A stretch of DNA of 64,000 nt from Alphaproteobacteria bacterium (lineage in GTDB: Bacteria; Pseudomonadota; Alphaproteobacteria; MPNO01), in assembly GCA_965248835.1 (NCBI GenBank), contig CBDFLJ010000001.1:1504001-1568000 (forward strand). Reading direction: 5' to 3'. Shown here in pieces: positions 6,134-39,882 of the stretch. The position numbers were made by a program, and so were the translations under genes. The notes beneath the pieces are model-generated. The model ran no database searches. It was not told where the DNA came from and saw only the letters and a program-made list of their open reading frames with translations. The stretch's first letter is position 1, and each line of letters begins with the position of its first letter.

Positions 6134-6213
6134 GAGCTCCGGCCTTGATCGCCGGCCGGACCTGGGATTAGCTTGACGGGCCGCGCTCAGCAAGCGCGAA
6201 GCCGGGAGCCACC

Positions 6214-7386: not shown

Positions 7387-7389
7387 ACC

Positions 7390-19333: not shown

Positions 19334-21115
19334 ATGGGACGGCCGATGGCAAACGGGAAGCATGCAACGGGCCGGTTGACCGATCCGGTGGTTACCGAAC
19401 TGGTCCGCAACGGGGTCATGGCGGTGACCGAGGAGATGAAGACCAATCTCACGCGCACCGCCTACAACATGATCATCTACGAGGCGCTCGACTTCACCGT
19501 CGGGCTGTTCACCGCAGACGGCGAGACCGTCTCGATCGGGCTCGGCCTGCCGATGTTCATCCGCGGCATGGCCGCGACCTTGAAGGCCAAGCTGGAGCAT
19601 TTCGGACCCGACGGAATCGAGCCCGGCGACATCCTGGTCACCAACGATGCCTACATCACCGGAAGCCATCTCAACCACGTCACCCTGAGCCAGCCGATCT
19701 TCCACGGCGGCAAGCTGGTCGCGTTCGCCTGCTGCATGGCGCATTGGCTGGATATCGGCGGGGTGCTCGGCGGGATTACCACCGACATCTATTCGGAGGG
19801 GCTGCAGATCCCGGTCCTGAAGCTTCAGAAGGCCGGCAGGATCAACCAGGACCTCGTGGACGTGATCAAGATGAACGTCCACATCCCCGACCGGGCGATG
19901 GGCGATCTGCGGGCACAGCTCACCGCGGTGAAGACCGGCGAGCGGCGCTTCACCGAGCTGCTCGACCGCTACGGTTGCGACGAGGTCCTGGCGGCGATCG
20001 CCGACATCATGGACCATTCCGAGCAGGCGGCGCGGGCGCGCACCGCCTCGATCCCCGACGGCGTCTACGAGGCCGAATCCTTCATGGACGATGACGGCAT
20101 CGACATCGGCAAGCCCATCCCGATCCGGGTCCGGGTGAGCGTCCAGGGCGAGGCGATGACCGTCGACCTGTCGGAGATTTCCGCGCAGGTGCGCGGCTTC
20201 TATAACTCCGGCATCACCACCGGGCATGCCTGCGCGCAGGTCGCCTACAAGTGCATCACCTCGCCCACCGACTACCCGATCAACGACGGCAGCCTGCGCC
20301 CGCTGAAGGTGGTCGTCCCGCCGGGCCGGGTGGTCAGCGCGACCAAGCCGGCGCCCATGCGGGTCTGGATGACGATCCCCATGACGGTCATCGACACCGT
20401 CTTCAAGGCGCTTGCACCGGCGATCCCCGACCGGGTGATCGCCGGCCATCACGCCGATCTCGGAGTCGCCGGCTTCCACGGCATCGCGCCGAAGGAACGG
20501 CGCCTGTTCATCGGCTCGAGCGGGCCGCTCGGCGGCGGCTGGGGGGCCAAGCACAACCAGGACGGCGTCTCCGCCACCGTCTGTCTGAACGACGGCGATA
20601 CCCACAACACGCCGGTCGAGCTGACCGAGAACCGCTACCCGATGATGATCGACCGCCACGGCCTGGTCCCCGATTCCTGCGGCGCCGGACGCCAGCGTGG
20701 CGGGCTCGGCATCGAGTACGCGGTCACCGCCCTGTCGCCGTTCAACCTGACGACCCGCACCGAGCGCGCGCATTGCAGGCCCTGGGGTCTGCATGGCGGG
20801 CTCGAAGCCTCGGGCAACGACGTCGCGCTGCGGCTCGACGGGGCGTGGAAGGACGATCTCGCCAACGCCAAGGTGCTGGCGGTGAACCTGCAGGAGGGCG
20901 ACGGCTATCGCCTGCGCTCGGGCGGCGGCGGCGGGTTCGGCGCGCCGCACGACCGGCCGGCCGAGGCGGTGCTGGAGGACGTCCGGCAAGGCTATGTCTC
21001 GCTCGCCGCCGCAGGCGAGCTCTACGGCGTGGTCATCGATCCGGCACGGATGGAGGTCGACGCCGCTGCGACCGAGCGCGCCCGGGCGGTCCCCGGCACG
21101 CCGCCCGACCGCTAG
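19334..21115 (+). CDS. Hydantoinase B/oxoprolinase family subunit with no co-oriented A partner
   Basis: DPVVTELVRN, RTAYNMIIYE, HWLDIGG, DSCGAGRQRGG and GGGGFG. Start 19334 or 19346. Confidence 0.92.
   Translation: MGRPMANGKHATGRLTDPVVTELVRNGVMAVTEEMKTNLTRTAYNMIIYEALDFTVGLFTADGETVSIGLGLPMFIRGMAATLKAKLEHFGPDGIEPGDILVTNDAYITGSHLNHVTLSQPIFHGGKLVAFACCMAHWLDIGGVLGGITTDIYSEGLQIPVLKLQKAGRINQDLVDVIKMNVHIPDRAMGDLRAQLTAVKTGERRFTELLDRYGCDEVLAAIADIMDHSEQAARARTASIPDGVYEAESFMDDDGIDIGKPIPIRVRVSVQGEAMTVDLSEISAQVRGFYNSGITTGHACAQVAYKCITSPTDYPINDGSLRPLKVVVPPGRVVSATKPAPMRVWMTIPMTVIDTVFKALAPAIPDRVIAGHHADLGVAGFHGIAPKERRLFIGSSGPLGGGWGAKHNQDGVSATVCLNDGDTHNTPVELTENRYPMMIDRHGLVPDSCGAGRQRGGLGIEYAVTALSPFNLTTRTERAHCRPWGLHGGLEASGNDVALRLDGAWKDDLANAKVLAVNLQEGDGYRLRSGGGGGFGAPHDRPAEAVLEDVRQGYVSLAAAGELYGVVIDPARMEVDAAATERARAVPGTPPDR
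19529..19574. repeat. 46-bp exact match, inverted, to 45270-45315 inside paralogous hydantoinase B genes
   Basis: GTCTCGATCGGGCTCGGCCTGCCGATGTTCATCCGCGGCATGGCCG is the reverse complement of 45270-45315. Confidence 0.8.
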
Positions 21116-23103
21116 CAATCGTCGCGGCGGAAGACGAAGTTGGTGTACTCGTCGACATCGAGCCGCCAGCCCGGCGCGACGGCATAGGACGTATCGGGTC
21201 CGTCGACCATCGCCGGTCCGCCGACCGACTGGCCCGGCAGCAGCGTTGCGCGCGCGTAGACCGGGGTGCGCAGCCGCCCCGCGGCGGCCCAACGTATGGG
21301 CCGCCTGCCCTGCGGCCGCGGCGCTTTGCGGGCCCGTGTCGTGGCCTTGACCGGGACCCAGTGCGAGACCTCGCACTCGGCCGACAGGCGGATGGCGTGG
21401 ATCCGGCCCCGCTCGCCCGCCGCCTCAGCGGCCTTGGAAACGGTCCCCGTCTTGCCGCGAACCGGCAGGGTGCGCAGTTTCTTGCCCACCGCGATATCGA
21501 CCTCGGCGATGGACTTGATCTCGCTCGCGGCGAAACCCTCGCTGCGCATGTCGGCCTCGGCCTGTTCGCGAAACGCGGCGAGGACCGCGTCGGCCTCGGC
21601 GATGCGGCTGGCCGCGATGCCGAGCGTCCGCGCATAGGCGTGGCGCACGTTGGTCGTGCTCGAGCCGAAGGCGCTGAACACCGAGCCGTAGGGAAAGGCG
21701 TAGACCTTGTCGACGCCGAGCTGGTCGGCCACCGCGCAGGCGTGCAGCGGCCCGCTGCCGCCGAACGAGAACAGCGTGAACCCCGCCGGGTCGCGGCCTG
21801 CCGCCTCCAGCCGGGTGCGGATCTCGTTGGCCATCTGGCGGTCGACCGCCTCGCGGACGGCAAGCGCCGCGTCCTCGCTGCCGATGCCCAGCGGGCGCGC
21901 GATGCGCCGGTCCATGGCGCGCTCGGCCAGCGCGGTCTCCAACCGCATGCGCCCGCCGAGGAAGCCCTCCGGATCGATATAGCCGAGCAGCAGGTTCGCG
22001 TCGGTCACGGTCGGCTCCATGCCGCCCTTGGCATAGCACGCCGGCCCGGGCGCCGCGCCGGCGCTTTCCGGCCCGACCCGCAACCGGCTGCCGGTGACCG
22101 TGGCGATGCTGCCGCCCCCGGCACCCAGGGATTCGACCTCGATCATCGGGGTGGCCAGCGGAATCCCCTCGATCCTCGGCGCCGTGCTGAGTGAGGCAGC
22201 CGCGTTCTCGATTACCGCGATGTCGAGGCTGGTGCCGCCCATGTCGGTGGTCACCACCCGGTCGAGCTTGAGCCGGCCGGCGAGATAGGCCGCACCGCGC
22301 GTGGCCACCGCCGGACCGGAATGCAGCGTGTTCAGAGCCACCGTCTTCGCGACCCGCGCATTGCCCCCGCTCGCGTGCACGACCAGCAGCGGGCGGTCGT
22401 AGCCGGCTTCGCGCAGCTTGTCCTCGGCACGGTAGAGCGTGCGCGCCATCGTCGCGTGGATATAGGCGTTCAGCACCAGCGAATTGGTCCGGCCGTGGTC
22501 GTCGGCGACGTGGATCACCTCGGTGCCGATCTGCAGCGGGACCGAGCGCAGGTAATGGATCGGATAGCGCTCCCGGATCAGGTCGCGGGCCGCAATCTCG
22601 TTCGCGGCGTTGCGCCAGGCGTTGCGGAAGCTGATGCCGATCATTCGCACGCCCTCGGCGAGGAGGTGCCGGACGGCTTCGCGCAGCCGGTCGGCATCGA
22701 CCGGCTTGCGCAGGCGGCCGCGGTCGTCGACCGTCTCCTCGACCCCCACCACCAGGTCGGCGGCGACAAACCGGTCGAGGATCCCGGCCCTCGGGGCCTT
22801 GCCGTAGAGCGTGGACTCGCAGCCCGCGGTGACGATCAGCCCGAGCCGCGGCCCGGCGCGCTGGACCAGGAGGTTGGTGCCCACCGTGGTCGAGACCCGC
22901 GCGACATCGGTGCGCCGCAGGAAGGATTCGAGGTCCATCGCGAAGGCCCGGCTGCCCGCCTCGACGCAGCTCATGAAGCATTCGGTGATGTCGTGCGGCG
23001 TGGTCAGGACTTTTTCGGTCTTGACCCGGGTTCCATCGCAGAAGAACCCGTCGGTGAACGTTCCCCCGATATCGATATCGATGCTGTACACTCCGGACCT
23101 CAC
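21112..23103 (-). CDS. apcA: Acetophenone carboxylase ApcA-like subunit (hydantoinase A family)
   Basis: YSIDIDIGGTFTD, TTPHD, ESTLYG, YPIHYLRSVPL, LYRAEDKLR and ARVAKT match my recollection of ApcA. True start may be GTG 23091. Confidence 0.72.
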   Translation of the reverse strand: MRSGVYSIDIDIGGTFTDGFFCDGTRVKTEKVLTTPHDITECFMSCVEAGSRAFAMDLESFLRRTDVARVSTTVGTNLLVQRAGPRLGLIVTAGCESTLYGKAPRAGILDRFVAADLVVGVEETVDDRGRLRKPVDADRLREAVRHLLAEGVRMIGISFRNAWRNAANEIAARDLIRERYPIHYLRSVPLQIGTEVIHVADDHGRTNSLVLNAYIHATMARTLYRAEDKLREAGYDRPLLVVHASGGNARVAKTVALNTLHSGPAVATRGAAYLAGRLKLDRVVTTDMGGTSLDIAVIENAAASLSTAPRIEGIPLATPMIEVESLGAGGGSIATVTGSRLRVGPESAGAAPGPACYAKGGMEPTVTDANLLLGYIDPEGFLGGRMRLETALAERAMDRRIARPLGIGSEDAALAVREAVDRQMANEIRTRLEAAGRDPAGFTLFSFGGSGPLHACAVADQLGVDKVYAFPYGSVFSAFGSSTTNVRHAYARTLGIAASRIAEADAVLAAFREQAEADMRSEGFAASEIKSIAEVDIAVGKKLRTLPVRGKTGTVSKAAEAAGERGRIHAIRLSAECEVSHWVPVKATTRARKAPRPQGRRPIRWAAAGRLRTPVYARATLLPGQSVGGPAMVDGPDTSYAVAPGWRLDVDEYTNFVFRRDDC

Positions 23104-23106
23104 CCC

Positions 23107-23976
23107 TTATCCGACGACAATGTTGCGCACGCGCAGGATGGTCTCCGCCGCGGTCTCCGCCGGGATCTCCCACGCCGAAAGGAACAGCCGCACCGTATCG
23201 GGCAGCCCGCGTTTCCAATCCGCGCCGAAATCGCCGTCTGCGGCAAACGCCCCGAGCGGAATGGCCGCGACCAACCCGTCGGCATCGCCCGGACCGACCG
23301 CCCAGCGCGCACCGGCGCCGCGCGCGGCTTCGCCGGCCTGCGCGGACAGCGCGGTGCGCGAAAGATAGAGCACCGGGACCTGGTAGTAGGCCGCCAGATT
23401 GAAAGCCGCATCGAATTGGCCGAATAGCGCCGGTTCGGGCGGCTCGTCTTCCAAGAGCATGATCGCCGCCACGCCGGCGCCGCACAGCAGGTCGACCATT
23501 TTCGACGAAAGCTGGGCGGCTGCCGCAACCGGCGCGTGTCCGCGCGCGGTGCCGTAGAGCCGTTTCAGCAGCGTCGCCGGCGCGGTCATCGTGCCGACCA
23601 CCGAGACGCCGTCGGCCATCTCTTCGCGCGCCCGCCTGGTCAGCGCCGCGGTCACCGCCACGGGCGTTGCATCGATGACCGCTGCCGGATCGACCGGCGC
23701 GGTGAGCGGGTCGGCAGGCCGGCTCACGCTCCCGTCCCCGGCCCGCGCCAGCGTTCGGCCGGCGGCCTCGGCCTCGGCCCATGTATCGAAGGCCACAGCG
23801 ATCGCATCGGCCTGCAGCACCTCTTGCGCCGAACGCAGGCTGAAGCTCGCCAGGGCCGGATCGGCCATGAACGCGGCATGGTCGAGCTGCTCCAGCCGCA
23901 AGACGACGCCGAGCCCCAGCGGGGCGAATAGCGGCGTCGGGGCACCCTCGAGTCGGCGGTCGAGCGGCGTTGCCAT
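23107..23976 (-). CDS. apcE: Acetophenone carboxylase ApcE-like subunit (UROD/MtaA-like fold)
   Basis: 289 aa. PLFAPL...LEQL...FMADP, AEAEAAG, MTAPATLL, LCGAGV and NLAAYYQVP. TGATG overlap with apcD-like. Size and position fit ApcE. Confidence 0.62.
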   Translation of the reverse strand: MATPLDRRLEGAPTPLFAPLGLGVVLRLEQLDHAAFMADPALASFSLRSAQEVLQADAIAVAFDTWAEAEAAGRTLARAGDGSVSRPADPLTAPVDPAAVIDATPVAVTAALTRRAREEMADGVSVVGTMTAPATLLKRLYGTARGHAPVAAAAQLSSKMVDLLCGAGVAAIMLLEDEPPEPALFGQFDAAFNLAAYYQVPVLYLSRTALSAQAGEAARGAGARWAVGPGDADGLVAAIPLGAFAADGDFGADWKRGLPDTVRLFLSAWEIPAETAAETILRVRNIVVG

Positions 23977-26111
23977 CAGCGATAAAGACCCCAGAACGGC
24001 TGGTCGTAGGCCGCAAGACGGGGCTCGGGCCAGCTTCCGTATTTCTCGATCACCGTCTCGGGCGGCCGCTTTCCGGACCAGCTCCGGGTGAAGGCCTCGA
24101 ACGTCCTGCCCTTGGCAAGGCGCTCGGTGCGGATGGCGTTTCGTCTCCGCTCGGTGGCCGCGTGGTCGATTCCGCCCTGCCGGTCGAGGACGACGCCGTA
24201 GATCTTGACGGCCACCTCGGTGGTGATCAGCCCTTCGTCGAGGTCGCGCCGTACCGCGGCCGGGTCCCGCTCGAGCACGTCGCCGTAGCCGCCGCCCGCG
24301 CCGACGCTGTGGACCACCAGGTCGGTCTCGCCGAACCCCTCGGCGTCCTTGGACGAGGAGGTGACCACATAGGTGCCGCCGATGCGGCTCTCGGCAAGCA
24401 GCGCATATTGTCCGAGCTCGACGTCCTCGCCGGCCTGCACGCGGCGCATCAGGTCTGCGTCGCGGATCACCAGCCGCGGGTTGGGCGGGCCGGCATAGCC
24501 GCCGAACAGGCCGAAGTTGAAGCTCAGCTTGTCGCAGCTCCCCCAGGAGCTCATCTGACAGGCGGCCTCGCCGCAGCCCATCGCGACCTCGAGCAGCGGC
24601 GTGCCGCCGCGATACTTGCCGAATCCGTGGAAATTCTTGTCGAGCTTGCGCGACAGGATCAGATGGGGCAGCCGCTCGTCCTGCTCCTCGACCTCGCCGG
24701 CATCGGTCCACGGCCCCCAATAGAAACCCAGCGCATGCTCGCCGTCCATGTCCAAGCGCCCGCCGCCGCCGCCGGCATTGGCTGCCCCGCCGTAATTGAC
24801 GGCGAAATAGCCGCGCCGGTTGGTGCCGGCGAAGATCGGCAGTGAATAGTTGCGCGACTGCGGCGCCTGGACGGCCTCGCGGTGATCGCTGTCGAACAGC
24901 ATCTTGGCGCCGACCATGTACATGTTCTGGGTGGCGAACGAGCAGGTCTGGTTGGCGAGTCCGTGGGCGAGCTCGTCCGAGGAGTTCATCATCGAGGGGC
25001 CCTCGACATAGTAGCTCACCGGTTCGAGCAGCCCGGCATTGGCCGGCAACAGACCGCGGAAGAAGTAGGAGAACAGATAAACCGCGGTCGCGGCTCGGGT
25101 CAGGTGCCAGCTCGAATTGAACGGCCCTTCATCGTTCTCCGGCGAGACGCCCTGGAGGATGACCGCCAGGCTGTCGTCTTCCTTGACGACGGTCAGCGGC
25201 ACGCGGGTAAGCCCGAAGAAGGTACCGTGCTCGTCGTTGAACAGGATCGATCGGAACACGCCGTCGTTGATCTCGCGCAGACGCGCGCGGGCGCTTTGCT
25301 CGCCGCGCACCAGCACGCCGCGCATGCCGCCGACCACCGGCTCGACACCGCGGCGCTCGACCTCGCGCAGGAACCGGCGGCGGATCTGGAACAGCGTAGC
25401 CACCCGCGACTTGAGGTCCGCCTCGAAGACCAGCGGGTTGCGCACCGACCCGGCCATGTAGTCGAGCACGTCGCGCCGGATCTGGAAGTCGCGGCCGATG
25501 CGCACGGCCGGCATGTGGAAGCCTTCCTCGTAGCGCGACTTGGCGGTCGGTGCGAACCCGCCCGGGGTGATCGAGCCGGTATCGCCCTGGTGGCCGCCGA
25601 CCTCGGCCCAGGCGACCAGCCGGTCCTGCCAGAAGATCGGCATTGCGGTGAACATGTCGAGGTTGTGGATCCCGCCGGCGAGTTCCTCGTTGAAGAAAAA
25701 AATGTCGCCGTCGGCGAGCCCGACCGAGGGGTCGTCGCGGTAGTATTTCAGGATGTATTTGAGCTGGGCGTTGTTGAGCAGCGTATGGAAATAGATCCCG
25801 GTGCCGACGACGACCGGATCGCCCGATGCGGTGAAGATCCCGCAATTCATGTCGCCGGTGATAATTCCTTCCGAGATCGACAGCGACATATAGACGTCGC
25901 GCGCCTCCTCGACGATCGAGCTCAGCTTGTGGGTCAGGATCTCGACATCGATATCGGACAGCAGCGCCATGCCGGCCCGCTCGATTTCGGTGACCGGCTC
26001 CAGCCCCCGGCAGATCAACTCCGGATCGCAGCCCGGCCGCTTTGCATAGACGTCGCGGTCATAGATCAGGTCGTCGAAAAGCCGGACATGACGGTCGAAC
26101 AGGACGCCCAT
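23976..26111 (-). CDS. apcD: Acetophenone carboxylase ApcD-like subunit (hydantoinase B family, metal site)
   Basis: GTGIYFH, GGIHNLD, GGHQGDTGSITPGGF, RYEEG, GFGKYRGG, LFGGYAG, GGGYGDVLERDP and KYGSWP are characteristic of Apc/acetone carboxylase large subunits. Confidence 0.75.
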   Translation of the reverse strand: MGVLFDRHVRLFDDLIYDRDVYAKRPGCDPELICRGLEPVTEIERAGMALLSDIDVEILTHKLSSIVEEARDVYMSLSISEGIITGDMNCGIFTASGDPVVVGTGIYFHTLLNNAQLKYILKYYRDDPSVGLADGDIFFFNEELAGGIHNLDMFTAMPIFWQDRLVAWAEVGGHQGDTGSITPGGFAPTAKSRYEEGFHMPAVRIGRDFQIRRDVLDYMAGSVRNPLVFEADLKSRVATLFQIRRRFLREVERRGVEPVVGGMRGVLVRGEQSARARLREINDGVFRSILFNDEHGTFFGLTRVPLTVVKEDDSLAVILQGVSPENDEGPFNSSWHLTRAATAVYLFSYFFRGLLPANAGLLEPVSYYVEGPSMMNSSDELAHGLANQTCSFATQNMYMVGAKMLFDSDHREAVQAPQSRNYSLPIFAGTNRRGYFAVNYGGAANAGGGGGRLDMDGEHALGFYWGPWTDAGEVEEQDERLPHLILSRKLDKNFHGFGKYRGGTPLLEVAMGCGEAACQMSSWGSCDKLSFNFGLFGGYAGPPNPRLVIRDADLMRRVQAGEDVELGQYALLAESRIGGTYVVTSSSKDAEGFGETDLVVHSVGAGGGYGDVLERDPAAVRRDLDEGLITTEVAVKIYGVVLDRQGGIDHAATERRRNAIRTERLAKGRTFEAFTRSWSGKRPPETVIEKYGSWPEPRLAAYDQPFWGLYR

Positions 26112-26118
26112 GCCGTCC

Positions 26119-28248
26119 TCAGTCCAGTCGCTCGATCCAGCCGGTGCCCCAGCCGTCGGTGCGGAACCTCCAGCCTGGCGGCGTGACGATGACGGTATCC
26201 TCGGCCTCGCACAGCACCGGACCCGGGAACGCGACCTTGGCGCCCAGGGTCTCGCGGCGGTAGATCGGCGTGTCGATGAACCCGAGCTCGGGTCCCCAAT
26301 AGGCCGGCCGCGTGCCGGTGCGCGAGGCTTCGGGGTCGGTATCTTCCTCGACCGGCTCGAAGGCGTGCTTGTCCGCCGCGCCGATCGCGTTCAGCCGCAC
26401 CTCGACCATCTCGATCCCGGCCTCCGGATAGCACGCGCCTTCGCCGTATTTCTCGGCGTAGGTGGCGTTGAAGGAATCGCAGACCGCCTTGATGTCCGCG
26501 GCGTCTCTCAGCCGCAGGCCGGGGACCCGGATCGGCAGGGTCTGGCGCTGCTGGCCGTAGCAGATGTGGACTTCCACCTGCAGCGTGACCGCGTCGAGAT
26601 CGAAGCCTTCCTCGGTCATGTCTCGCCTGCCGAACGCCATCAGCCGGTCGACCTCGGCGTTGAACCGCTCGATATTGCCGGTGGCATAGGTCCCGTCGCG
26701 GTGCGAGTAGAGGTTGAGGTGGAGCGTCCGCTCGTAGGTCTGCAGAACATCCATGGTCAACGTCGAGAAGGCGCCAAACACCGAGGAGACTGAGAACGTC
26801 GCAACCCGGCTGACGTCTGCGCCGTCTGCGTAGCCGGTCGCGTGCGCGGGCCCGGCGCCGCCGAGCGCGAACAGCACGAAGTCGCGCGGGTCCTGGCCGG
26901 AGGTCAGCGCGCAGATGCGGTACATCTCCTGGCCCATATAGCCGTCGATCAGCCGCTTGATGTCCCAGGCGGCCTCCACGACCGACTTGCCCAGGGGCGC
27001 GGCGATGTGGCTGCGGATCGCCGCCTCGGCGCGGGCGGCGTCGATCCGCAGCCGCCCGCCGAGGAAATTCTCCGGGTTGATGTAGCCCAGCACGACATCC
27101 GCATCGGTCACCGTCGGGTCGTCGCCGCCGCGGCCGTAGCACGCCGGCCCGGGGTTGGAGCCGGCGCTTTCCGGCCCGACCCGCAGGTCGCCCTCGACCA
27201 TTTTGGCGATCGAGCCGCCGCCCGCGCCCACCGACCAGTGCGCCACGTAAGGGATCTGCACTCTGAACCGGTCGATCACCGGGTCGTACTCGTAGACCCG
27301 ATCGCGCCCCTCGACGACCAGACCGACGTCGAAGCTCGTCCCGCCCATGTCGGAGACGATGATATTGGGCGCGCCGATGATCCCGCCGATATGGTCCGAG
27401 CCGATCACCGTCGCCACCGGGCTCGAGCCCAGCAGGTGAAGCGCCTGGGAACGCGACAGCGAGGACAGCCCGCCGGTGTTCTTGGCCACGAACACCGGCT
27501 TGCGGTAGCCCACCTCGCGCAGGTCATCGGACAGCCGCAGCACGTGCCCCTCGGTCAGGTCGCGCAGATAGGCATCGATGATCACCGTCATCGAGCGCCG
27601 GTATTCGCCGGCCTTGGGCGAGATTTCGTGCGACAGGAAGATAGGCATGTGGCCGAGGTAGCATTCCGGGAACTGCTCGGCGATGAGAGCGCCGACCCGC
27701 CGTTCGTGAACCGGGTTGACGTAGGCGTTGAGCAGCACGACCACGAAACCGCGCACGCCCCGGTCGACCAGGGATTGGACCTGGGTGCGGACGTCTTCGT
27801 CGCGCATCGGGATGATCACGTTCCCGAGATTGTCGATGCGTTCCTGGATGCCGACGATGCGGTCCTGCGGCACCAGCGGCGCCGGCCGGACCGCGCGCCC
27901 GCGGTCGTACTTCTTCTCCGTCGGCAGCCCGTCGCCCCAGTTGCGCGCCCGCCCGACATGAACGGTGTGCTCGAACCCCTTGGTGGTGATCAGGCCGAGC
28001 CGCGCGCCGCGCCGTTCGATCAGCGCGTTGGTCCCCACCGTGGTGGAGTAGGCGATCGACTCAGCGCCCTTCAGCGCATCATCGAGGTCGAGCCCGGCGC
28101 GGGCGACCGCCGCACGGGTCGCGTTCATGAACCCGACCTTGAGGTCGTAATGGGTGGTGTCGGACTTGCCGCGGTACAATTCGCCGTCGCGGATGTAGAC
28201 GACGTCGGTGAACGTGCCGCCGATATCGACGCCGATGGAGCCGCTCAT
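26119..28248 (-). CDS. apcC: Acetophenone carboxylase ApcC-like subunit (hydantoinase A family)
   Basis: VDIGGTFTD, TTHYDLKVGF, GRARNWGDG, ERIDNLG, GEYRRSMTVIIDAYL, PVIDRF and AYWG. ATGA overlap with apcB-like. Confidence 0.75.
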   Translation of the reverse strand: MSGSIGVDIGGTFTDVVYIRDGELYRGKSDTTHYDLKVGFMNATRAAVARAGLDLDDALKGAESIAYSTTVGTNALIERRGARLGLITTKGFEHTVHVGRARNWGDGLPTEKKYDRGRAVRPAPLVPQDRIVGIQERIDNLGNVIIPMRDEDVRTQVQSLVDRGVRGFVVVLLNAYVNPVHERRVGALIAEQFPECYLGHMPIFLSHEISPKAGEYRRSMTVIIDAYLRDLTEGHVLRLSDDLREVGYRKPVFVAKNTGGLSSLSRSQALHLLGSSPVATVIGSDHIGGIIGAPNIIVSDMGGTSFDVGLVVEGRDRVYEYDPVIDRFRVQIPYVAHWSVGAGGGSIAKMVEGDLRVGPESAGSNPGPACYGRGGDDPTVTDADVVLGYINPENFLGGRLRIDAARAEAAIRSHIAAPLGKSVVEAAWDIKRLIDGYMGQEMYRICALTSGQDPRDFVLFALGGAGPAHATGYADGADVSRVATFSVSSVFGAFSTLTMDVLQTYERTLHLNLYSHRDGTYATGNIERFNAEVDRLMAFGRRDMTEEGFDLDAVTLQVEVHICYGQQRQTLPIRVPGLRLRDAADIKAVCDSFNATYAEKYGEGACYPEAGIEMVEVRLNAIGAADKHAFEPVEEDTDPEASRTGTRPAYWGPELGFIDTPIYRRETLGAKVAFPGPVLCEAEDTVIVTPPGWRFRTDGWGTGWIERLD

Positions 28249-28652
28249 CGCTTCGCCGCCTTCGCGTTCGCCTTTGTCCCGGCTTTTGTCTTCGGCTTGG
28301 CCGGGGCCTTGCGCCGGCGCGACCTTATGCCGTGCTTTTGCTTCAGCTTGTCGAGATCGAGCTGGATGTCCCAGGTCAGCGGATGGCCCGGCGGCAGATA
28401 CTCGTTCTCGACCATGACCGCACAGCCCGGACAATAGAACTCGACGATCCGCATCCATTCCGGATCGAATGAAAAGTTGAATTCCTTGCTCGGCCCGATC
28501 GGGAAATGGATCTCCCGCGGGTCGCGTTCGCGGACCAGGCAGCCCCTCTTGTAGGATTCGCGCGCATCGCCGAGGTCGTGATCGCACCGGTTGCAGCACC
28601 ACCGCTCGGCCTCGAGATCGATGTCGAGATACTCGGTGATCCTCACCCGCAT
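28245..28652 (-). CDS. apcB: Acetophenone/acetone carboxylase small Zn-binding subunit (ApcB/AcxC family)
   Basis: RITEYLDIDL, CNRC, ARESYKRGCLV, EFYCPGC and EYLPPGHP. Two CxxC pairs. Confidence 0.85.
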   Translation of the reverse strand: MRVRITEYLDIDLEAERWCCNRCDHDLGDARESYKRGCLVRERDPREIHFPIGPSKEFNFSFDPEWMRIVEFYCPGCAVMVENEYLPPGHPLTWDIQLDLDKLKQKHGIRSRRRKAPAKPKTKAGTKANAKAAKR

Positions 28653-28684
28653 CGCGCCGGCCCCGCCTGTTGTCGGTCGAATTC

Positions 28685-28726
28685 GTTAGGCGGCTAACTT
28701 TTCGCAGCGCGGTAGCGTCCGGTCAA
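28685..28726 (-). promoter_or_regulatory. Candidate sigma70 promoter of the apc-like operon with an overlapping palindrome
   Basis: Minus strand TTGACC (28726-28721), 18-nt spacer, AAAAGT (28702-28697). Palindrome GTTAG-GCGG-CTAAC at 28685-28698. Confidence 0.35.
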
Positions 28727-28789
28727 GAATTACCAGGGTTCAACCGCTCGCAGGACGGATCGTGCGCCTCGTCCGCGCCCCATTCCCGC

Positions 28790-30337
28790 TCACGCGTCCA
28801 GGTCGCCGAGCTGAGGGAAGTGTTCGGCCCGGAAGGACGAATAGGCGACGGCGTTCTCTGCCGAGTCGTCGTCGACCGTCAATTCGAACACGATTTCGTC
28901 CGGCGACGCTTTCGCCGTCTCGATCTGCCGCAATTTGCAGTGACCTTCGTCGAGCCTGTCCGAAGGCGTGCCGTCGACGCTGCACACGCCGCCGTAGTTG
29001 ATGTAGGTGTTGCCGGTCGAGGGCAACCGGTAGGCGCCGCTCTGGAAGCACGAATAAGTCCCGTCATCCGCCCGGCCTCGCGCCCAGATCTGGCGCGCCG
29101 TCATACCGTCACGATCGACGGCGAACTCGACGGCCCGGCTGTAGCAGTCCACCTCCGGCATCCCGGGCGCGAACGGGATCGCACGGTGGTTGCCGTTGTC
29201 GAAGCACAACAGAGTGCCCGCGGGCGTGATCGAGCAATCGTGCTGGTGATAGGGCCATTCGAGCCCGGGTGCTGCGGTGAGCAGCTTGTCCGTCCAGGGC
29301 GCGCGCCAGCCCGCGTGATCGCCCAGTATCCAGACCAGTTCGCCGCTAGCGCGGTCGATCTTGATCAGGCAGTCCTGATGCCGGACCGAGGCGACGAAGC
29401 CGTCATCGGCGCCGTCATAGGCGAGCGCGTTGACGTGGCTCCAATCGCAGGTGCCGGGAAAGCCGCGGCGGACCCAATAGGCGCTGCGGCTGCCGTAACA
29501 GACGCGTCTCGGGTCGAGCAGGTCGAGCAGCCGGTATTCGTTGACGACCGTCCCGTCGCGGGCGAATTCGACGATCACGTCGCCCACCAGGCGGGCGGTC
29601 TCGGTTCCCCCTTCGGGGTCGTCCTCCGTCGCCGGGAAGCCGTCGATCTCGCGGATCTCCATGCTGCACGCCAGAAGATTGCCCCACGGCAGCTCGATCG
29701 CCGCGTGGTGGAACATTCCCGCCGCGACCTCGCGCGCGCCGGCCTGCGGCGTGCGGTCCTCCCAGCGTCCCTTCGCGTACCATTCGGCCCTGGTGTCGCC
29801 CAGGAGATCGATCTCGCGGACCCGCCCGTCGGCGACATACAGCAGGTTGCCGTTGGCGAGCCGCCGCACATCGCCGATCGCCTCGTCGATGCGGTAGGTC
29901 CAGACGATCTCCCCCCAGCGGTCGATTCCGACCAGGAGGCCGAATCCCGGGAGGTGCTCGGATGCGGGCGAGTGCCGGATGTTGAACACCATCACCCCGG
30001 GCTCGCGTCTCTCGGGGATGCAGGACATCACCTTGAGGAGCGGAAAATCGTCTGCCAGCTCGGGCGCGGTGAAGCCGAGCGTCTCGACCGCCCGGTTTCC
30101 TTCCCCGTCCTGCGCGGTCACCACGATCGCATGGTCACGGCCGGGGCGGAGCCCGATCACCGGGACGCTGTGCCGGGTCCGGCGCTGTTCGACGGAATCA
30201 ACGGTCCAGCGGCGCTCTCCCTCCGAGACCTCCAGCACGGCGCGGGACGGCGTATCGGTCGTGAACGCGACGATGGCCGAAAGAGGCGCCCGTTCGTTGG
30301 GGTTTGCGGAAGCGACCGGCGCGGTCACGAACTTCAT
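28790..30337 (-). CDS. Aryl-sulfate sulfotransferase (ASST, PAPS-independent)
   Basis: N-terminal Ig-like domain (NPNERAPLSA, HSVPVIGLRP). Active-site-type motifs FHH, DWSHVNA, SVRHQD, WILG, YHQHD and FDNG. No signal peptide. Confidence 0.88.
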   Translation of the reverse strand: MKFVTAPVASANPNERAPLSAIVAFTTDTPSRAVLEVSEGERRWTVDSVEQRRTRHSVPVIGLRPGRDHAIVVTAQDGEGNRAVETLGFTAPELADDFPLLKVMSCIPERREPGVMVFNIRHSPASEHLPGFGLLVGIDRWGEIVWTYRIDEAIGDVRRLANGNLLYVADGRVREIDLLGDTRAEWYAKGRWEDRTPQAGAREVAAGMFHHAAIELPWGNLLACSMEIREIDGFPATEDDPEGGTETARLVGDVIVEFARDGTVVNEYRLLDLLDPRRVCYGSRSAYWVRRGFPGTCDWSHVNALAYDGADDGFVASVRHQDCLIKIDRASGELVWILGDHAGWRAPWTDKLLTAAPGLEWPYHQHDCSITPAGTLLCFDNGNHRAIPFAPGMPEVDCYSRAVEFAVDRDGMTARQIWARGRADDGTYSCFQSGAYRLPSTGNTYINYGGVCSVDGTPSDRLDEGHCKLRQIETAKASPDEIVFELTVDDDSAENAVAYSSFRAEHFPQLGDLDA

Positions 30338-30426
30338 GGTCTCGCTCCCCGATGCCCCGCCCGTTGTAATATTCGCCCCGTCTGTTAGTGTTTTTCGACG
30401 ACGGGCGAGGCGAGGGGGACCATAGC

Positions 30427-31521
30427 ATGGGACCGATCCAGCGGCTACCGGCGGGCCTGATCGCCGGCTTCATCGTGGTTGCCGGTGTGGTTGCCGGTGT
30501 CGATGCACGGGCGAAGACGTATTTCGAGGGAAAGACGATCACGGTGCTGAGCCCGGTGCCGGGCGGCAGCGGCCTGGACCGGCTCACCCGCGCCTTCGTG
30601 CGGCACTGGCCGGGGCACATCCCGGGCAAACCCAACATGATCGTCAAGAACATGCCGGGCGGCGGCGGCGCCAAGCCCTTGAACTTCCTTTACGAGCGTG
30701 GCCGGCCGGATGGGCTCACACTCTATCTGGGTCCGTGGAACGCACCCGGCGTCGTGGTCGGCACCCCGGGGCTGCGCTACACGCCCGAAAAGTTCGTGAT
30801 GATCGGCGCCGGCGGCCTGGACCGGGTGACGCTGATGCGCACCGACGTCGCGCCCGGCATCAGGACGCCGGCCGACGTGATGAAGGCGCCCGGCTTCAAT
30901 GTCGGCGGAAGGCGCGCCGATCAGATGCTGGATTTCCTCGGCAACCTCGCCTTCGAGATGATCGGGGCGAAGTACAGATTCATCGGCGGCTACCGCGGCA
31001 TGGCCAAGATCCGCCCGGCCTTCATGTCCAACGAAGTGCAGGCCGCGAACAGCGGGAGCATCGGCTATTACGTCTTCTTCAAGGACACGATGCTGAAGGA
31101 CGGCTCAGCCATTGCGCTGTGGTCGCATCCCGATTTCGACAAGGCGGGCAATCCGGTCAAAGCCGTTTCGTTTCCCGGCGTGCCGAGCTTCGAAGAGGTG
31201 TATCGGGAGGTGCACGGCAAGATGCCCTCGGGCCCCCTCTGGAAGACCTACAAATGGTACTCGCAGGTTCTGGGGAACACGACCTTCACCGTCTTCGCTG
31301 CGCCCGGCACGCCGGCGGAACCGACCGCGGTCCTGCGTGCTTCCTACAAGGCCACGACGCAGGATCCCGCCTATTACGAACCGGAGAGGAAGCGGCTCGG
31401 CGGCACCGGGGTCAACTTCATCGGCGTCGAGGAAGCGCTGCACGTCCAGAAGACGTTCCGCAAGGTCGATCCCGACGTGCTCGCGACATTGAAGAAGATA
31501 ACCACGGTCGGCCAGCGATAA
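30427..31521 (+). CDS. tctC: Tripartite tricarboxylate transporter substrate-binding protein (TctC/Bug)
   Basis: Signal peptide ending ARA-K, YFEGKTI, PGGSGLD, VKNMPGGGG, PDGLT and GYRG. Confidence 0.85.
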   Translation: MGPIQRLPAGLIAGFIVVAGVVAGVDARAKTYFEGKTITVLSPVPGGSGLDRLTRAFVRHWPGHIPGKPNMIVKNMPGGGGAKPLNFLYERGRPDGLTLYLGPWNAPGVVVGTPGLRYTPEKFVMIGAGGLDRVTLMRTDVAPGIRTPADVMKAPGFNVGGRRADQMLDFLGNLAFEMIGAKYRFIGGYRGMAKIRPAFMSNEVQAANSGSIGYYVFFKDTMLKDGSAIALWSHPDFDKAGNPVKAVSFPGVPSFEEVYREVHGKMPSGPLWKTYKWYSQVLGNTTFTVFAAPGTPAEPTAVLRASYKATTQDPAYYEPERKRLGGTGVNFIGVEEALHVQKTFRKVDPDVLATLKKITTVGQR

Positions 31522-31551
31522 GGCCGCCTCTTCCCATGTGCGGCGGCGCGC

Positions 31552-33531
31552 TCAGCCGAACACCAGCGGCTGATGCCAGAAAACGTGCATCACCTGGTCG
31601 TAGAAGCCGTAGAGGAATGCCCAGCCGCCGGCAGCGTAGGCGAGCGAGACCCTCCAGCGATAACCGCCCCATCGCCGCAGATAGAGGGCGACGAACAGCG
31701 GCAGGGCGATCATCTGCCCGAAGAGATACGCGACCAGGATGAGCGCGACGAGGTAGCCGAAGAAGCACGCGGCGGGGCCGAGCAGCGCTTCTCGGGCGGC
31801 GGCCCCGGCTGCCGCCGCCAGGCCGCTTGCCTCGCGCACGGCAGCGCGCAGAAGCGGCGTCTCGCGCCATAGCACGGCGAAAGAGAGCACTGCGCCCGGG
31901 ATGGCGGCGGTCAAAGGGAACTGCCGGACGACCGCCGGCCAGTCGAGCGATTCGAGCGCCGCCAGAGCGAAGACCGCCGTCATCAGCACCGCGAACGGCA
32001 CCGAGATGACCGGGCTGCCTTCCGCTCCTTCGCCCCTTGTCGGCGCGTCCGGCGCGGCTTTCGACTTGACGACCCCGCGCGCGGAAAGGAACAGGGTCAG
32101 GGCGATCAGGGCGACGATCACCAGAACGATCGGCCGATCCAGCCATCCCAGGCCGGTATGGATGCGCATGCTGATCTGAAAGGCATTCTCCAGGATCGGA
32201 CCCAGGATCAACGCCAGAATGAGCGGCGGGCGAGGCCAGCCGCCGCGCTTCATGGCGAAGCCGATCACGCCCATCGCGAGGCAGGTGATCCAGTCGCCGA
32301 TCGACGCTCCGCCCAGCCAGGCGCCCATGAAGACGAACAGGATCACCCCCGGCACGATCAGATGGCCGCGGATGAACGCGATCTTGGCCACCTGTCCGCT
32401 CCACAGCATCAGCAGAGCGGCCGCCAGGATGTTGGCGAGGACGATGGCCCAGACCATGCTGAAGGTGATGTCCAGCTTCTCGGTCAGCATTTCCGGGCCC
32501 GGCTTGAGGCCCTGGATGAGGAGCGCCCCCATCAGGATCGCCGTGCCGAGGCTGCCGGGGATTCCGAAGGCGACCATGGGCAGCAGCGCGCCGCCCCTGG
32601 TGGCGTTGTTGGCGGCCTCCGGCGCGATGACGCCGCGAATGTCGCCGCGGCCGAACTGCGACTTGTCCTTCGCCGATTGGACGGCATGGCCATAGGCGAA
32701 CCAGTCGACGACCGCGGCGCCGAGCCCCGGCAGCATGCCGACATAGGTGCCGAGCGCCGCGGAACGAAGCGCCAGCCACCAATGCCGGAAGGCGTCGCGG
32801 ATGCCCTCGCGCATCCCGCCGCCCCGGCTCTGCTCCTTGGGAATGCGGGCGATCGAGGTGTCCTTGATCGCCAGCTCCATGAGCTCGGGGATGGCAAAGA
32901 GACCGAGCACGACGGGGATCAACGGAACGCCGTCGAGCAGATATACGGCGCCGAACCAGTACCGGGGAACGGGTGCGGTCTCGGCATAGCCGATCATCGC
33001 CATCAGCAGCCCGAGCAACGCCACGGTCAGGCCCTTGAGCACGGACCCGCCGCTGAGCGAGCCCACCATCGCAAGCCCGAGCATGCCCAGCATGAACAGT
33101 TCCGGCGATCCGAAGGCGAGGATGATCGGCAGCACCAGCGGGATGGACACAGCCAGGATCAGCGCGCCGAATATCCCGCCGAAGGCGGAGACGGTGAACG
33201 CGGCGCCGAACGCCCGTGCCGCCTGGCCCTGCTGCGCCAAAGGATAGCCGTCGAGGATCGTCGCCTGCGAGGCCGCAGTGCCCGGTATGCCGAGCATCAC
33301 CGAGGCGATCGTGTCGCTGGTCGAGGTCACCGCGAACATGCCGAGCAGCAGCGCGAACGCCGAAACCGGATCCATGCCGTAGGTGAACGGCAACAGGATC
33401 ACCAGCCCGAGGATTCCGCCGAGGCCCGGGACCGCGCCGAGCCAGATCCCGAGCAGCACGCCGAGCGCCAGAAACCCGATCGCCGGCCATTGGAACACCA
33501 ACGCAAGACCGGTCAGCATGCTCTCGATCAT
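31552..33531 (-). CDS. tctA: Tripartite tricarboxylate transporter permease TctA with fused C-terminal TctB-like domain
   Basis: GAVPGLG, GIPGT, LDGYPLAQQG, GVIAPEAANNA and FGIPGS. About 160 extra hydrophobic residues at the C-terminus. Confidence 0.9.
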   Translation of the reverse strand: MIESMLTGLALVFQWPAIGFLALGVLLGIWLGAVPGLGGILGLVILLPFTYGMDPVSAFALLLGMFAVTSTSDTIASVMLGIPGTAASQATILDGYPLAQQGQAARAFGAAFTVSAFGGIFGALILAVSIPLVLPIILAFGSPELFMLGMLGLAMVGSLSGGSVLKGLTVALLGLLMAMIGYAETAPVPRYWFGAVYLLDGVPLIPVVLGLFAIPELMELAIKDTSIARIPKEQSRGGGMREGIRDAFRHWWLALRSAALGTYVGMLPGLGAAVVDWFAYGHAVQSAKDKSQFGRGDIRGVIAPEAANNATRGGALLPMVAFGIPGSLGTAILMGALLIQGLKPGPEMLTEKLDITFSMVWAIVLANILAAALLMLWSGQVAKIAFIRGHLIVPGVILFVFMGAWLGGASIGDWITCLAMGVIGFAMKRGGWPRPPLILALILGPILENAFQISMRIHTGLGWLDRPIVLVIVALIALTLFLSARGVVKSKAAPDAPTRGEGAEGSPVISVPFAVLMTAVFALAALESLDWPAVVRQFPLTAAIPGAVLSFAVLWRETPLLRAAVREASGLAAAAGAAAREALLGPAACFFGYLVALILVAYLFGQMIALPLFVALYLRRWGGYRWRVSLAYAAGGWAFLYGFYDQVMHVFWHQPLVFG

Positions 33532-33611
33532 CGGGAGTCCGTCTCCACCCGCGTGCCGCGACTATATCGGCAATCCCGGGCGGTGTCCGAAGCACCGAGG
33601 CGGGCCGGCGC

Positions 33612-35129
33612 TTAAAGGGGGACGAAGGTTCCGTGAAGTCCGAGCGGGAGGGCGTAGGGAAGGCTTGCGACAGCGAGCGGGCCGTCTTCCAACCGCGCGG
33701 CATCGAAGACGTTCAGTCGTGTTACCCCGGCTGCGAAGTCGAGGCTGGTGCCGATCAGCCAGCCGTTGTCCTCGCCGCCGCCCGGGCGGGGAACGAACAG
33801 ATGTTCCTCGGGGATCGTCGTCGGATCATAGGCATGGACCGTCAGATCCCCGGTCTCGACGTCCAGCCGGCCGACGGCGTTGAGCATCGGGTGCCGGCTC
33901 TCCGCCGCCGGTGTCTGCATCAAAAGCGTGATCTTGCGATAGCAGCGGCCGGTGCGGCGTCGATCGACGTGAGGGAACTCGGCTCCGAGACCCGGTTGGG
34001 TCAGCGGGGTTTCGGTGATGCGGCCCCGAGCGGGATCGATGCGCACCAGATGCTGTCGGGCCGCGAGGCCTGGTCGGCCTTCGCCGCGCATGATCGCCCT
34101 TAGCGGTCCGAACATGATCGAAGGATCGTCGTAGCGGGCGGAGTCCAGACGAATGATCCCGGCCGCGTCCTCCCAGGCGTTGCCGTAGTGGAAGGTGAAA
34201 TGGGCCGGCATTTCGAGGACTCTCGGTCGGGAAAGTGCGGTCTTGTCGAGGATCAGGACCCGGGCGGGCAGCTCGGGCTGCCAGACCATGCTGTCCAGAA
34301 GGCTCTTCCCCGGCTCGGGCGCAAAAAACAGCGGCGGCAGGATCGCGACCACATGGTTTTCGGTGATCACGAAGTCATGGACCATCGGTGTCTTGCCGAT
34401 GCGAAGCGGAACGGCAGTCTTCAGCTTGCCGTCACGGCCGATGTGATAGATCACAAGGACACCGAACCCGGCCGCGTAACCGATATTCCAGAGCGTTCCG
34501 TCTCGATCCAGCCTCGGATGGGCGCCGAAGGGGACGCCGCTCGTTTCGGGCGACCAGTAGTGGGGTGCCTCGGTCTCCAGGGTCGCCGGGTCCAGGCGAT
34601 GCGCCGAGCCGCCCTCCCAGAGCGCGTATAGTCTCTCGGCGTGCCATAAGACGCTGGTATTCGCCGGGTTGGTCGAATCCGGGCTCGTGACACGCTCCAT
34701 GCCGGGCACCACCGTGCCGAAGGTTTGCCGCAGGGCGCGCCCGGCCCGGCGTTCGGCCTTGAACTTCGCGGTCTCGACGATGCGGCCGAGATGGGAAATC
34801 CGGCCGTCGGCGAAGCGGAAGGCCTGCACCATCCCGTCGCCGTCGAACCAGTGCCGGTAGCGCAGGCCGCCGATCTCATGCCGGCCCGGCCCGTTGCGAT
34901 AGACAGTGCCGCGAAGCTCCGCCGGCCAAGCCCCTCTAACATCGAGCGACGGTGTTTCGAGACGCGCCTCGGGGCGGCCCAGCCAGCCCAGCAGATAGGG
35001 TCTGGTCTTCAGGGCCTTCCGGAAGGATACCGCCCACGCATCGAGGGCAGCGGCGCCCGCTCGGCCGGGGAGGCCGGCAAGCGCCAGCGCCGAGACGGCC
35101 GCATAGTGGAGGAATTCTCGTCGGATCAT
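33612..35129 (-). CDS. Carotenoid-cleavage/lignostilbene-type oxygenase (RPE65 family) with Tat signal
   Basis: MIRREFL Tat motif, YRNGP, HWFDGDG and four Fe-His motifs (AHPR, VHDF, FHYGN, GLHG). Confidence 0.9.
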   Translation of the reverse strand: MIRREFLHYAAVSALALAGLPGRAGAAALDAWAVSFRKALKTRPYLLGWLGRPEARLETPSLDVRGAWPAELRGTVYRNGPGRHEIGGLRYRHWFDGDGMVQAFRFADGRISHLGRIVETAKFKAERRAGRALRQTFGTVVPGMERVTSPDSTNPANTSVLWHAERLYALWEGGSAHRLDPATLETEAPHYWSPETSGVPFGAHPRLDRDGTLWNIGYAAGFGVLVIYHIGRDGKLKTAVPLRIGKTPMVHDFVITENHVVAILPPLFFAPEPGKSLLDSMVWQPELPARVLILDKTALSRPRVLEMPAHFTFHYGNAWEDAAGIIRLDSARYDDPSIMFGPLRAIMRGEGRPGLAARQHLVRIDPARGRITETPLTQPGLGAEFPHVDRRRTGRCYRKITLLMQTPAAESRHPMLNAVGRLDVETGDLTVHAYDPTTIPEEHLFVPRPGGGEDNGWLIGTSLDFAAGVTRLNVFDAARLEDGPLAVASLPYALPLGLHGTFVPL

Positions 35130-37772: not shown

Positions 37773-38188
37773 CAGCGCCCGCCGGTCAGGGCGAGCTTGG
37801 CGCGCTTGGCCTGGAGCCGGTCCGCCTGGCGGCCGCGGTCGATCACGAAACGGGTGTGGCGGGCCCTGCCGACCAGCTCGATCGGGTCGTGCACCTCGAC
37901 ATCGAGGACGATCTTTCGCCGGTCGACCTCGATGATCTCGGCCTTGATGTCGACCCAGGAGCCCGACAGCGAGGCGCCCAGATGGTCGAGCTCGACCCGC
38001 GCGCCGACCGTCTCCTCTTGCTCCTCGAGATGCTGCTTGATCATCTCCAGGCAGGCGATCTCGATATCGCGCAGCAGCATCGGCGTGGCGTAGACCCGCA
38101 ATGCCTCGCCCATGAACCCGATCGTCTTGTCGTCGTCGATGTCGAAGCGGCGGGTCGTGCCCAGCCCCGGCTTGAGCGTGTCCTTCAT
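37772..38188 (-). CDS. Hot-dog-fold thioesterase (FlK-like)
   Basis: VYATP, E, ETVG..VELDHL and GRARHTRFVID. Confidence 0.85.
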   Translation of the reverse strand: MKDTLKPGLGTTRRFDIDDDKTIGFMGEALRVYATPMLLRDIEIACLEMIKQHLEEQEETVGARVELDHLGASLSGSWVDIKAEIIEVDRRKIVLDVEVHDPIELVGRARHTRFVIDRGRQADRLQAKRAKLALTGGR

Positions 38189-39747: not shown

Positions 39748-39882
39748 TGCCGCCGTCCGTGCAGTATCACAGCCCGCGCCATGTTAATGGAGAATGTGCG
39801 CCGGCGTCATCGCCGCGATCGAGTTGCATGGACCCCGGACCGTTCCTAGGATGCCGGCGAAGCCGTTGGAAAAGGGTGAGAC

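Follow-up and report, generated by a model that had tools for sequence, protein, structure and literature searches.

A gene for a cytoplasmic member of the aryl-sulfate sulfotransferase (ASST) family lies between the genes of a tripartite tricarboxylate transporter (TTT) and a five-gene operon resembling that of acetophenone carboxylase (Apc) in a 64,000-nucleotide stretch of an alphaproteobacterial genome (G000), which we refer to as the window (C1:1504001-1568000). The initial annotation had joined these parts into one candidate pathway for aryl ketones. Based on gene neighbourhoods in other genomes, the TTT importer and the cytoplasmic ASST appear to be a conserved unit across bacteria, and the Apc operon is its neighbour in this genome alone. 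Two independent modules were thus probably brought side by side through lineage-specific rearrangement.

Linkage of the transporter, ASST and carboxylase genes across genomes

Neighbouring genes were identified by tblastn using the window proteins as queries, so that ASST or Apc homologs of very low similarity may have escaped detection, and the compared genomes were nearly all metagenome-assembled genomes (MAGs) of related Alphaproteobacteria. A TctA gene of the same long type as in the window adjoined ASST in 19 of 80 ASST-centred loci, and TctC-like and/or TctA genes did so in 31 of the 80. Both counts are minimum values, given the shortness of many contigs, and they are not independent, as the genomes are related. 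Within the set drawn from the window's relatives, ASST and transporter genes were linked in seven of 19 loci. Three gene orders retain this linkage, i.e., the divergent one of the window, a co-directional operon of binding protein, TctA and ASST (chiefly in MAGs with the label Rhodospirillaceae or Rhodospirillales), and the order ASST, binding protein and TctA. Furthermore, operons of binding protein, TctA and ASST were present in all four loci fetched for a paralogous ASST clade (33-39% identity). TctA matches are scarce, with only six in the 4.9 Mb of G000, which places the adjacency of TTT and ASST genes far above chance. Other genes adjoining ASST encode a sulfatase (6/80 loci) and, in some loci, 2-oxoglutarate-dependent oxygenases, glutathione S-transferases (GSTs) or LysR regulators. 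A metagenome scan with ASST returned two contigs only (2.0 and 2.4 kb), both without usable flanks.

The proposed third partner behaved differently, and the conserved linkage of ASST and TTT genes to apc, whose absence from related clusters had been named beforehand as refuting a common pathway, was missing throughout. None of 28 ApcD-centred loci in species-representative genomes contained ASST, TctC-like or TctA matches within flanks of up to 10 kb. Thirteen of these loci are apcC/D clusters (ApcD identity 70-87%), with apcE visible in 12 and at least 3 kb of upstream sequence available in nine. Likewise, ASST, TctC or TctA occurred within 5 kb in none of 31 ApcB-centred loci, which span Alpha- and Betaproteobacteria, Chloroflexota and Actinomycetota. 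Seen from the other side, the 80 ASST-centred loci (relatives at 40-69% identity) held no HydA, HydB, ApcB or ApcE match, and apcB or apcC was found within 1.5 kb in 0/19 ASST loci from the window's relatives. Eleven related genomes carry orthologs of both ASST and ApcD; these lie 1.57-2.87 Mb apart in four (G007, G012, G014 and G015) and on different contigs in seven. In a DNA map, the blocks of the window fall at four separate sites of G007: apcB (0.12 Mb), apcCDEA (1.29 Mb), a HydAB pair (3.03 Mb), and ASST, binding protein and TctA together (3.17 Mb). In the complete genome of the same genus (G002), neither an ASST nor an ApcB ortholog was found with these queries. The coupling of transporter and ASST within the proposed pathway is therefore conserved (31/80 loci and 4/4 paralogous loci) but its link to Apc is not, and the reservation already attached to the proposal, that the adjacency might be coincidental, has become the better-supported reading.

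The transporter and the ASST-family protein

As the G+C content of the window is 66-72%, genes were called via third-position G+C (GC3) and checked against Pfam, NCBIfam and PDB (Table 1). Calling of open reading frames (ORFs) and Pfam matches reproduced the gene content, coordinates and spacings described before. ASST and apcB are co-oriented, with 137 bp between the ASST stop and the apcB start, and 89 bp separate the ASST start from the ATG of the divergent binding-protein gene; a GTG at 30388 would reduce the latter distance to 50 bp.

Table 1. Features of the locus (window positions).
Feature	Position	Strand	Basis of assignment
apcA-like gene, HydA-type large subunit, final gene of the operon, 663 aa	21112..23103	-	Pfam and PDB
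Epsilon-like subunit gene, 289 aa	23107..23976	-	Position, size, weak ApcE match
apcD-like gene, HydB-type subunit, 711 aa	23976..26111	-	Pfam Hydantoinase_B, PDB
apcC-like gene, HydA-type subunit, 709 aa counted from the ATG at 28248	26119..28248	-	PDB
apcB-like gene, small Cys-rich subunit, 135 aa	28245..28652	-	PF08882, PDB
Conserved promoter-like motif 5' of apcB, within the 137-bp gap	28698..28726	-	Alignment of relatives
Signal-less ASST-family gene, 515 aa	28790..30337	-	PF05935 and PF17425
Divergent TctC-like periplasmic binding protein with signal peptide, 364 aa	30427..31521	+	Relatives, fold
TctA membrane subunit with fused TctB-like C-terminus, 659 aa	31552..33531	-	PF01970
RPE65/lignostilbene-dioxygenase-like gene, start approximate	33612..35050	-	Pfam RPE65
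HydA-HydB pair flanking the operon	19458-15431	-	Hydantoinase/oxoprolinase-type
Lone divergent HydB	19334-21115	+	Hydantoinase/oxoprolinase-type
HydA-HydB pair flanking the operon	47564-43762	-	Hydantoinase/oxoprolinase-type

Against Pfam and NCBIfam, the gene labelled tctC in the initial annotation gave no match even at E=10. PF03401 (TctC domain) is, however, present in relatives with 35-43% identity, and the AlphaFold model of the window protein (pLDDT 92.9) found TctC, Bug/BugD, TphC and MatC as top PDB matches (E 1e-15 to 1e-11), with TM values of 0.64-0.80 by target length against TctC, BugD, TphC and MatC. Relatives, predicted fold and signal peptide together indicate a TctC/Bug-type binding protein, so that the label holds indirectly. 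In contigs from three of four short-read runs, 12 bases are inserted behind 30474, within the signal-peptide region of this gene. The insertion lengthens the hydrophobic core of the signal peptide by four residues and looks like a strain variant.

TctA was recognized over residues 19-439 by PF01970 (E=1.1e-122, 410 bits). The C-terminal 180 aa of the same ORF contain hydrophobic segments and match PF07331 (TctB) over 126 of 137 positions, with E=1.2e-4 and a score of 22.7 bits that stays below the cutoff of 29.1, and no separate tctB gene was seen at the locus. TctA orthologs of 657-692 aa adjoin ASST homologs in other genomes. The transporter genes are present as described, except that TctA is encoded on the minus strand and runs convergently to the binding-protein gene, which it does not follow in one transcript, and that TctB would be represented by the weak C-terminal match within the TctA ORF. 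Overall, the system resembles TctCBA transporters, including those with the terephthalate-binding protein TphC/TBP or with MatC, in its binding-protein fold, its strong TctA match and its TctB-like part. It differs from them in a binding protein that has diverged beyond the reach of the Pfam TctC model and in a TctB-like part that forms the C-terminal end of the TctA ORF.

An alignment of the intergenic region between binding-protein gene and ASST with those of six relatives did not define a shared regulatory site. Five of the relatives (L064-L066, L069 and L070) have a conserved block (TTGTGGCAYC..TTGCGCTAG) in their divergent TctC-like/ASST region, and this block is absent from the 89-bp region of the window. 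Upstream of TctA, at a distance of 80 bp and co-oriented with it, lies an RPE65-like gene (Pfam RPE65, E=5.3e-108), which scored 186 bits against the NCBIfam lignostilbene dioxygenase model (cutoff 800). Its third-position G+C is below that of its neighbours, and it failed the GC3 filter. As tblastn found no match to it in any compared locus of the relatives, it is not conserved beside TctA.

The ASST-family protein matches Pfam Arylsulfotrans (PF05935; E=3.1e-61, 207.9 bits, cutoff 24.2) and has an Ig-like N-terminal domain (PF17425); no NCBIfam model matched it, the binding protein or TctA. In E. coli AssT, H436 carries the sulfuryl group, and H356 and R374 are further residues of the catalytic site. 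These align to H366, H301 and R319 of the window protein (PDB 3ELQ), the register of the alignment being fixed by the structure of the H436N variant (4P04). All three residues are invariant in 81/81 aligned relatives. The window protein has neither a signal peptide nor an N-terminal hydrophobic stretch, and no in-frame start codon lies upstream; among the 81 aligned proteins, those N-termini that are clean likewise lack signal peptides. The earlier description of a cytoplasmic ASST is in line with the lack of a signal and the intact catalytic His/Arg/His. Compared with the periplasmic AssT of E. coli CFT073 (3ELQ), the window protein belongs to the same Pfam family and keeps the counterparts of H356, R374 and H436. 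Unlike AssT, it lacks a signal peptide and partners of the dsbL/dsbI type, as a Pfam scan of the window ORFs revealed no Dsb-type gene among its neighbours. Only about 160 residues of the two proteins align by phmmer, and the window ASST is linked to a TTT importer, whereas AssT is linked to Dsb genes. The periplasm is not the only location of the family, since Cpz4 of Streptomyces caprazamycin biosynthesis is described as an enzyme of the aryl sulfotransferase (AST) type with an intracellular role (PMC13426309). By that description, Cpz4 belongs to an antibiotic biosynthetic cluster, in contrast to the window clade with its uptake transporter.

The protein could also be linked to the transporter without being an aryl sulfotransferase in vivo, its His/Arg/His acting on some other imported anion, e.g., by hydrolysis or by transfer of another group. 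Such a role would fit the cytoplasmic location of the clade, the restriction of the phmmer alignment with E. coli AssT to residues 295-453, the absence of an NCBIfam model, and the many relatives of about 420 aa that are without the N-terminal Ig-like domain. Moreover, a 2026 review states that the natural substrates of ASTs are unknown (PMC13426309). Nevertheless, we regard it as unlikely, given the invariance of H301, R319 and H366, the strong Pfam ASST match (E=3e-61) and the sulfatases that adjoin ASST in 6/80 loci, which fit sulfate-ester chemistry.

As a side observation, small split genes for a thiamine pyrophosphate (TPP) enzyme, with N- and C-domain ORFs, are located at 40265-41471 of the window, about 10 kb from ASST. 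A TPP_enzyme_N ORF of 168-206 aa also occurs 3-5 kb from ASST in L002, L004 and L005 (around 14.6-15.9 kb). These ORFs may be a leftover of shared synteny.

The carboxylase operon and its upstream region

The operon runs from 28652 down to 21112 on the minus strand in the order B-C-D-E-A and is tightly packed. The apcB and apcC genes overlap by ATGA, apcD and apcE overlap as well, and apcE and apcA are spaced by 3 nt, which indicates translational coupling. For apcC, the ATG at 28248, overlapping the apcB stop, is the sole start codon near the start of homology. The apcA-like product matches Pfam Hydantoinase_A, Hydant_A_N and Hydant_A_C, with 5l9w_b (acetophenone carboxylase alpha) as its top PDB match (E=1e-112). 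Top PDB matches of the other core subunits are 5l9w_B for the apcC-like product (E=3.2e-159), 5l9w_A for the apcD-like product (E=6.1e-90, versus 1.4e-44 for acetone carboxylase alpha) and 5l9w_C for the apcB-like product (E=1.4e-39), which also matches Pfam Acetone_carb_G (PF08882; E=3.8e-33). For each core subunit, the acetophenone-carboxylase chain outscores the acetone-carboxylase chain in PDB. Domains, PDB matches and gene overlaps thus confirm the five-subunit, apcBCDEA-like operon that had been proposed from the sequence.

The epsilon-like gene was assigned with weak matches to NCBIfam ApcE (E=3.9e-6, 26.4 bits, cutoff 450) and to URO-D (E=2e-6), and orthologs with 28-51% identity occupy the same position in relatives. 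In the Apc-like five-gene enzyme of Rhodococcus aetherivorans (Acr), a heterodecameric acetone carboxylase described in 2026, epsilon is essential yet highly divergent (PMC13677872), and cross-hits between true epsilons are similarly weak (PMC13677872, section 2.6). Judged by the NCBIfam equivalogs of A. aromaticum Apc, the window enzyme would not count as a strict acetophenone carboxylase, as the scores for ApcA to ApcE (487.8, 151.8, 565.5, 333.4 and 26.4 bits) are all far below the cutoffs (1250, 250, 1500, 1500 and 450). The operon does have the composition given for the Apc/Acr type, i.e., three hydantoinase/oxoprolinase homologs with an ApcB/AcxG-type subunit and a protein of about 30 kDa (PMC13677872, legend of Figure 4), here as two HydA-type subunits, one HydB-type subunit, an ApcB/AcxG-type small subunit and an extra protein of about 30 kDa. 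The same paper describes five-gene Apc-like operons as widespread in Pseudomonadota, with Alpha-, Beta- and Gammaproteobacteria contributing 30-45 genomes each (PMC13677872). By sequence, apcBCDEA would be an additional proteobacterial member of the already known five-subunit ketone carboxylases.

The operon shares its two HydA-type, one HydB-type, small Cys-rich and ~30-kDa epsilon-like subunits with Apc of Aromatoleum aromaticum EbN1 (5L9W). It differs from the latter in gene order (B-C-D-E-A versus A-B-C-D-E), in an epsilon that is barely alignable, and in the lack of an adjacent gene for benzoylacetate-CoA ligase; the AMP-binding gene nearest to the operon (38185-39783) lies outside it, about 4.6 kb beyond TctA. 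With Acr it has in common the Apc-like five-gene layout and a divergent epsilon-like subunit. Acetone as substrate is deduced in that paper from downstream genes converting acetoacetate (PMC13677872). In contrast, a Pfam scan found no acetoacetate-converting gene adjacent to the window operon, and relatives have VanA-like oxygenase, CoA-transferase III, AMP-ligase or HpaB genes nearby. These neighbours are a weak hint that the substrate is an aromatic ketone rather than acetone, weak because neighbours of this kind are cheap in G000, which has about 44 matches to VanA-like Rieske oxygenases, many family III CoA-transferases and AMP-ligases, and 22 hydantoinase-family loci.

Upstream of apcB, at a distance of 46-74 nt, lies a motif (TTGACCG..CCGCGCTGCGAAAAG) that the window, G007 and G014 share without variation, with the rest of the surrounding intergenic DNA differing among the three. 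The gene upstream of apcB differs as well; it encodes ASST in the window and a family III CoA-transferase in G007 and in L160, a same-species counterpart of the G014 locus that apparently represents the same place. The motif is probably the own promoter or operator of apcB. A scan of 20900-33800 for sigma-70 and terminator consensus sequences gave one promoter-like site (0.7 expected) and ten terminator-like sites (5.7 expected), none of them in the gap between ASST and apcB; the scan carries no information for this organism. In the regions upstream of apcB and apcC, no match to a loose sigma-54-type regular expression was found.

In a related genus, apcB is located more than 1 Mb from apcCDEA (L060, L061, L149-L158 and L160). 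In 12 loci of one genus it follows genes for an AMP-ligase, a VanA-like Rieske oxygenase and a CoA-transferase III, and in L060 alone a SnoaL-like gene is annotated before apcB. This arrangement suggests a divided carboxylase operon tied to methoxy-aromatic catabolism. In the related genus, apcCDEA has FGase-GNAT as well as an NMT1-type ABC system with a cupin at its flanks. NitT/TauT-type ABC genes lie beside both ASST and apc in that genus; we dropped them as a meaningful link since they are ordinary paralogs (43-46% identity). In L018, the full apc operon is followed by genes for a CoA-transferase, an esterase and an HpaB-type phenol hydroxylase. In L009, a PF00884 sulfatase and a GST lie directly upstream of apcC (5212-7624), at an apparent inversion that also displaced the ABC, NMT1 and cupin genes. 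A recurring sulfate-ester theme was considered for this sulfatase and dropped, because it is found in one of 13 apcC/D clusters and at an inversion.

Several points weigh against two independent modules. The adjacency is real in the population: contigs from the four short-read runs bridge apcC, apcB and ASST (27964-30232, one difference) as well as ASST and the binding-protein gene, so that the junction of ASST and apcB is not an assembly artefact, although all four runs stem from one sample, possibly the source of the assembly itself, and are not independent biological replication. No terminator-like hairpin was found in the 137-bp gap between the two co-oriented genes, and read-through transcription is therefore possible. 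The apcB motif is common to three genomes and absent from a fourth (G012), in which apcB starts 10 nt after the upstream stop. Absent synteny is also weaker evidence in relatives that are kin, mostly MAGs and heavily rearranged. Finally, the sulfatase and GST in L009 and the HpaB and CoA-transferase genes in L018 mean that a link between the carboxylase and phenolic or sulfated substrates is not absurd.

These observations leave a slim chance for one newly assembled pathway, in which a sulfated aryl methyl ketone would enter through the transporter, lose its sulfate through the ASST in the cytoplasm and be carboxylated by the Apc-like enzyme. It would draw on the co-oriented and read-confirmed junction with no terminator-like site found in its gap, on the intact active site and missing signal peptide of the ASST, and on the gene contexts in relatives, i.e., the sulfatase and GST beside apcC in one relative, the phenol-handling genes beside apc in L018, and the VanA-like oxygenase and CoA-transferase beside apcB in 12 loci. 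Framed in evolutionary terms, and again improbable in our judgement, the TTT-ASST unit would have been captured in front of the carboxylase operon in one lineage, with an imported aryl ketone sulfate or sulfated phenolic precursor being desulfated and then carboxylated without biotin; if true, this would be an operon caught during assembly. Against such a pathway stands the absence of the junction from every other genome compared, with none in the 28, 31, 80 and 19 loci and with ASST and ApcD unlinked in all 11 genomes that carry both. The apcB motif also occurs in genomes with a neighbour other than ASST, and the ASST-transporter module is widespread without any carboxylase. Furthermore, chance neighbours are plentiful: G000 has 21 HydA and 27 HydB matches in 22 loci (ApcB and ApcE, only one match each; ApcB at E<=1e-10), which corresponds to about 44 flanking genes, and a single ASST-apc adjacency alone is thus not significant. 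In addition, solved TctC-fold proteins bind carboxylates, judging from the titles of their structures, and a ketone sulfate has no carboxylate.

The hydroxyacetophenone and acetovanillone routes of Rhodococcus (Hpe) and Sphingobium (Acv) involve phosphorylation of the phenol and a biotin-dependent carboxylase. The carboxylation of aryl methyl ketones is a theme that they have in common with the proposed pathway, and a scan of the window ORFs revealed neither an Hpe/Acv-type kinase nor a biotin carboxylase domain. For Sphingobium, a preprint names the genes acvABCDE F (10.1101/2022.04.28.489975). A variant of the proposal has the ASST sulfate the phenolic hydroxyl group of a hydroxy-aryl ketone as a mask, in place of the phosphorylation by Hpe/Acv, before biotin-independent carboxylation. 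Gene adjacency and the reversibility of sulfuryl transfer between phenols by ASSTs, as described in a review (PMC13426309), speak for this variant. Beyond the linkage evidence, which counts equally here, it needs a stoichiometric cytoplasmic aryl-sulfate donor, and no gene for making one was seen among the window ORFs scanned; a later desulfating enzyme is missing from the locus as well. We consider this variant highly improbable.

Possible functions and significance

Starting from the gene identities, conserved residues, linkage patterns and motif observed, we infer substrates and reaction steps for two separate modules. In the periplasm, the binding protein would capture an organic anion, which TctA-B would then import; the most likely candidates are sulfated phenolic acids and aryl sulfate esters like them. 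If the ASST works like the E. coli enzyme, its His366 would receive the sulfuryl group in a ping-pong mechanism and hand it to a phenolic acceptor or to water, thereby freeing the phenol. We expect the TTT-ASST module to serve the import and the desulfation, or trans-sulfation, of an anionic aryl sulfate. The Apc-like enzyme would act as a five-subunit, ATP-dependent ketone carboxylase, probably expressed from its own promoter. The mechanism of Apc consumes two ATP and proceeds via enol phosphate and carboxyphosphate (PMC5214803), and by homology we assume the same for the window operon: with one ATP, the enzyme would convert a methyl ketone to its enol phosphate, and a second ATP would activate bicarbonate to yield a beta-keto acid.

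In the literature covered, which does not extend to subscription journals, we found no description that links ASST with a TTT or with Apc. As the three-part pathway for sulfated aryl ketones is unsupported, experimental effort on it can be spared. The natural substrates and physiological roles of aryl sulfotransferases independent of 3'-phosphoadenosine 5'-phosphosulfate are still described as unknown in the 2026 review (PMC13426309). In Alphaproteobacteria, including many Rhodospirillales/Rhodospirillaceae MAGs, genes of the signal-less ASST clade recur next to those of a dedicated TTT importer, and the ligand of the binding protein should therefore name the natural donor of the ASST. The TTT-ASST module thus offers a modest new lead on the natural role of these sulfotransferases.

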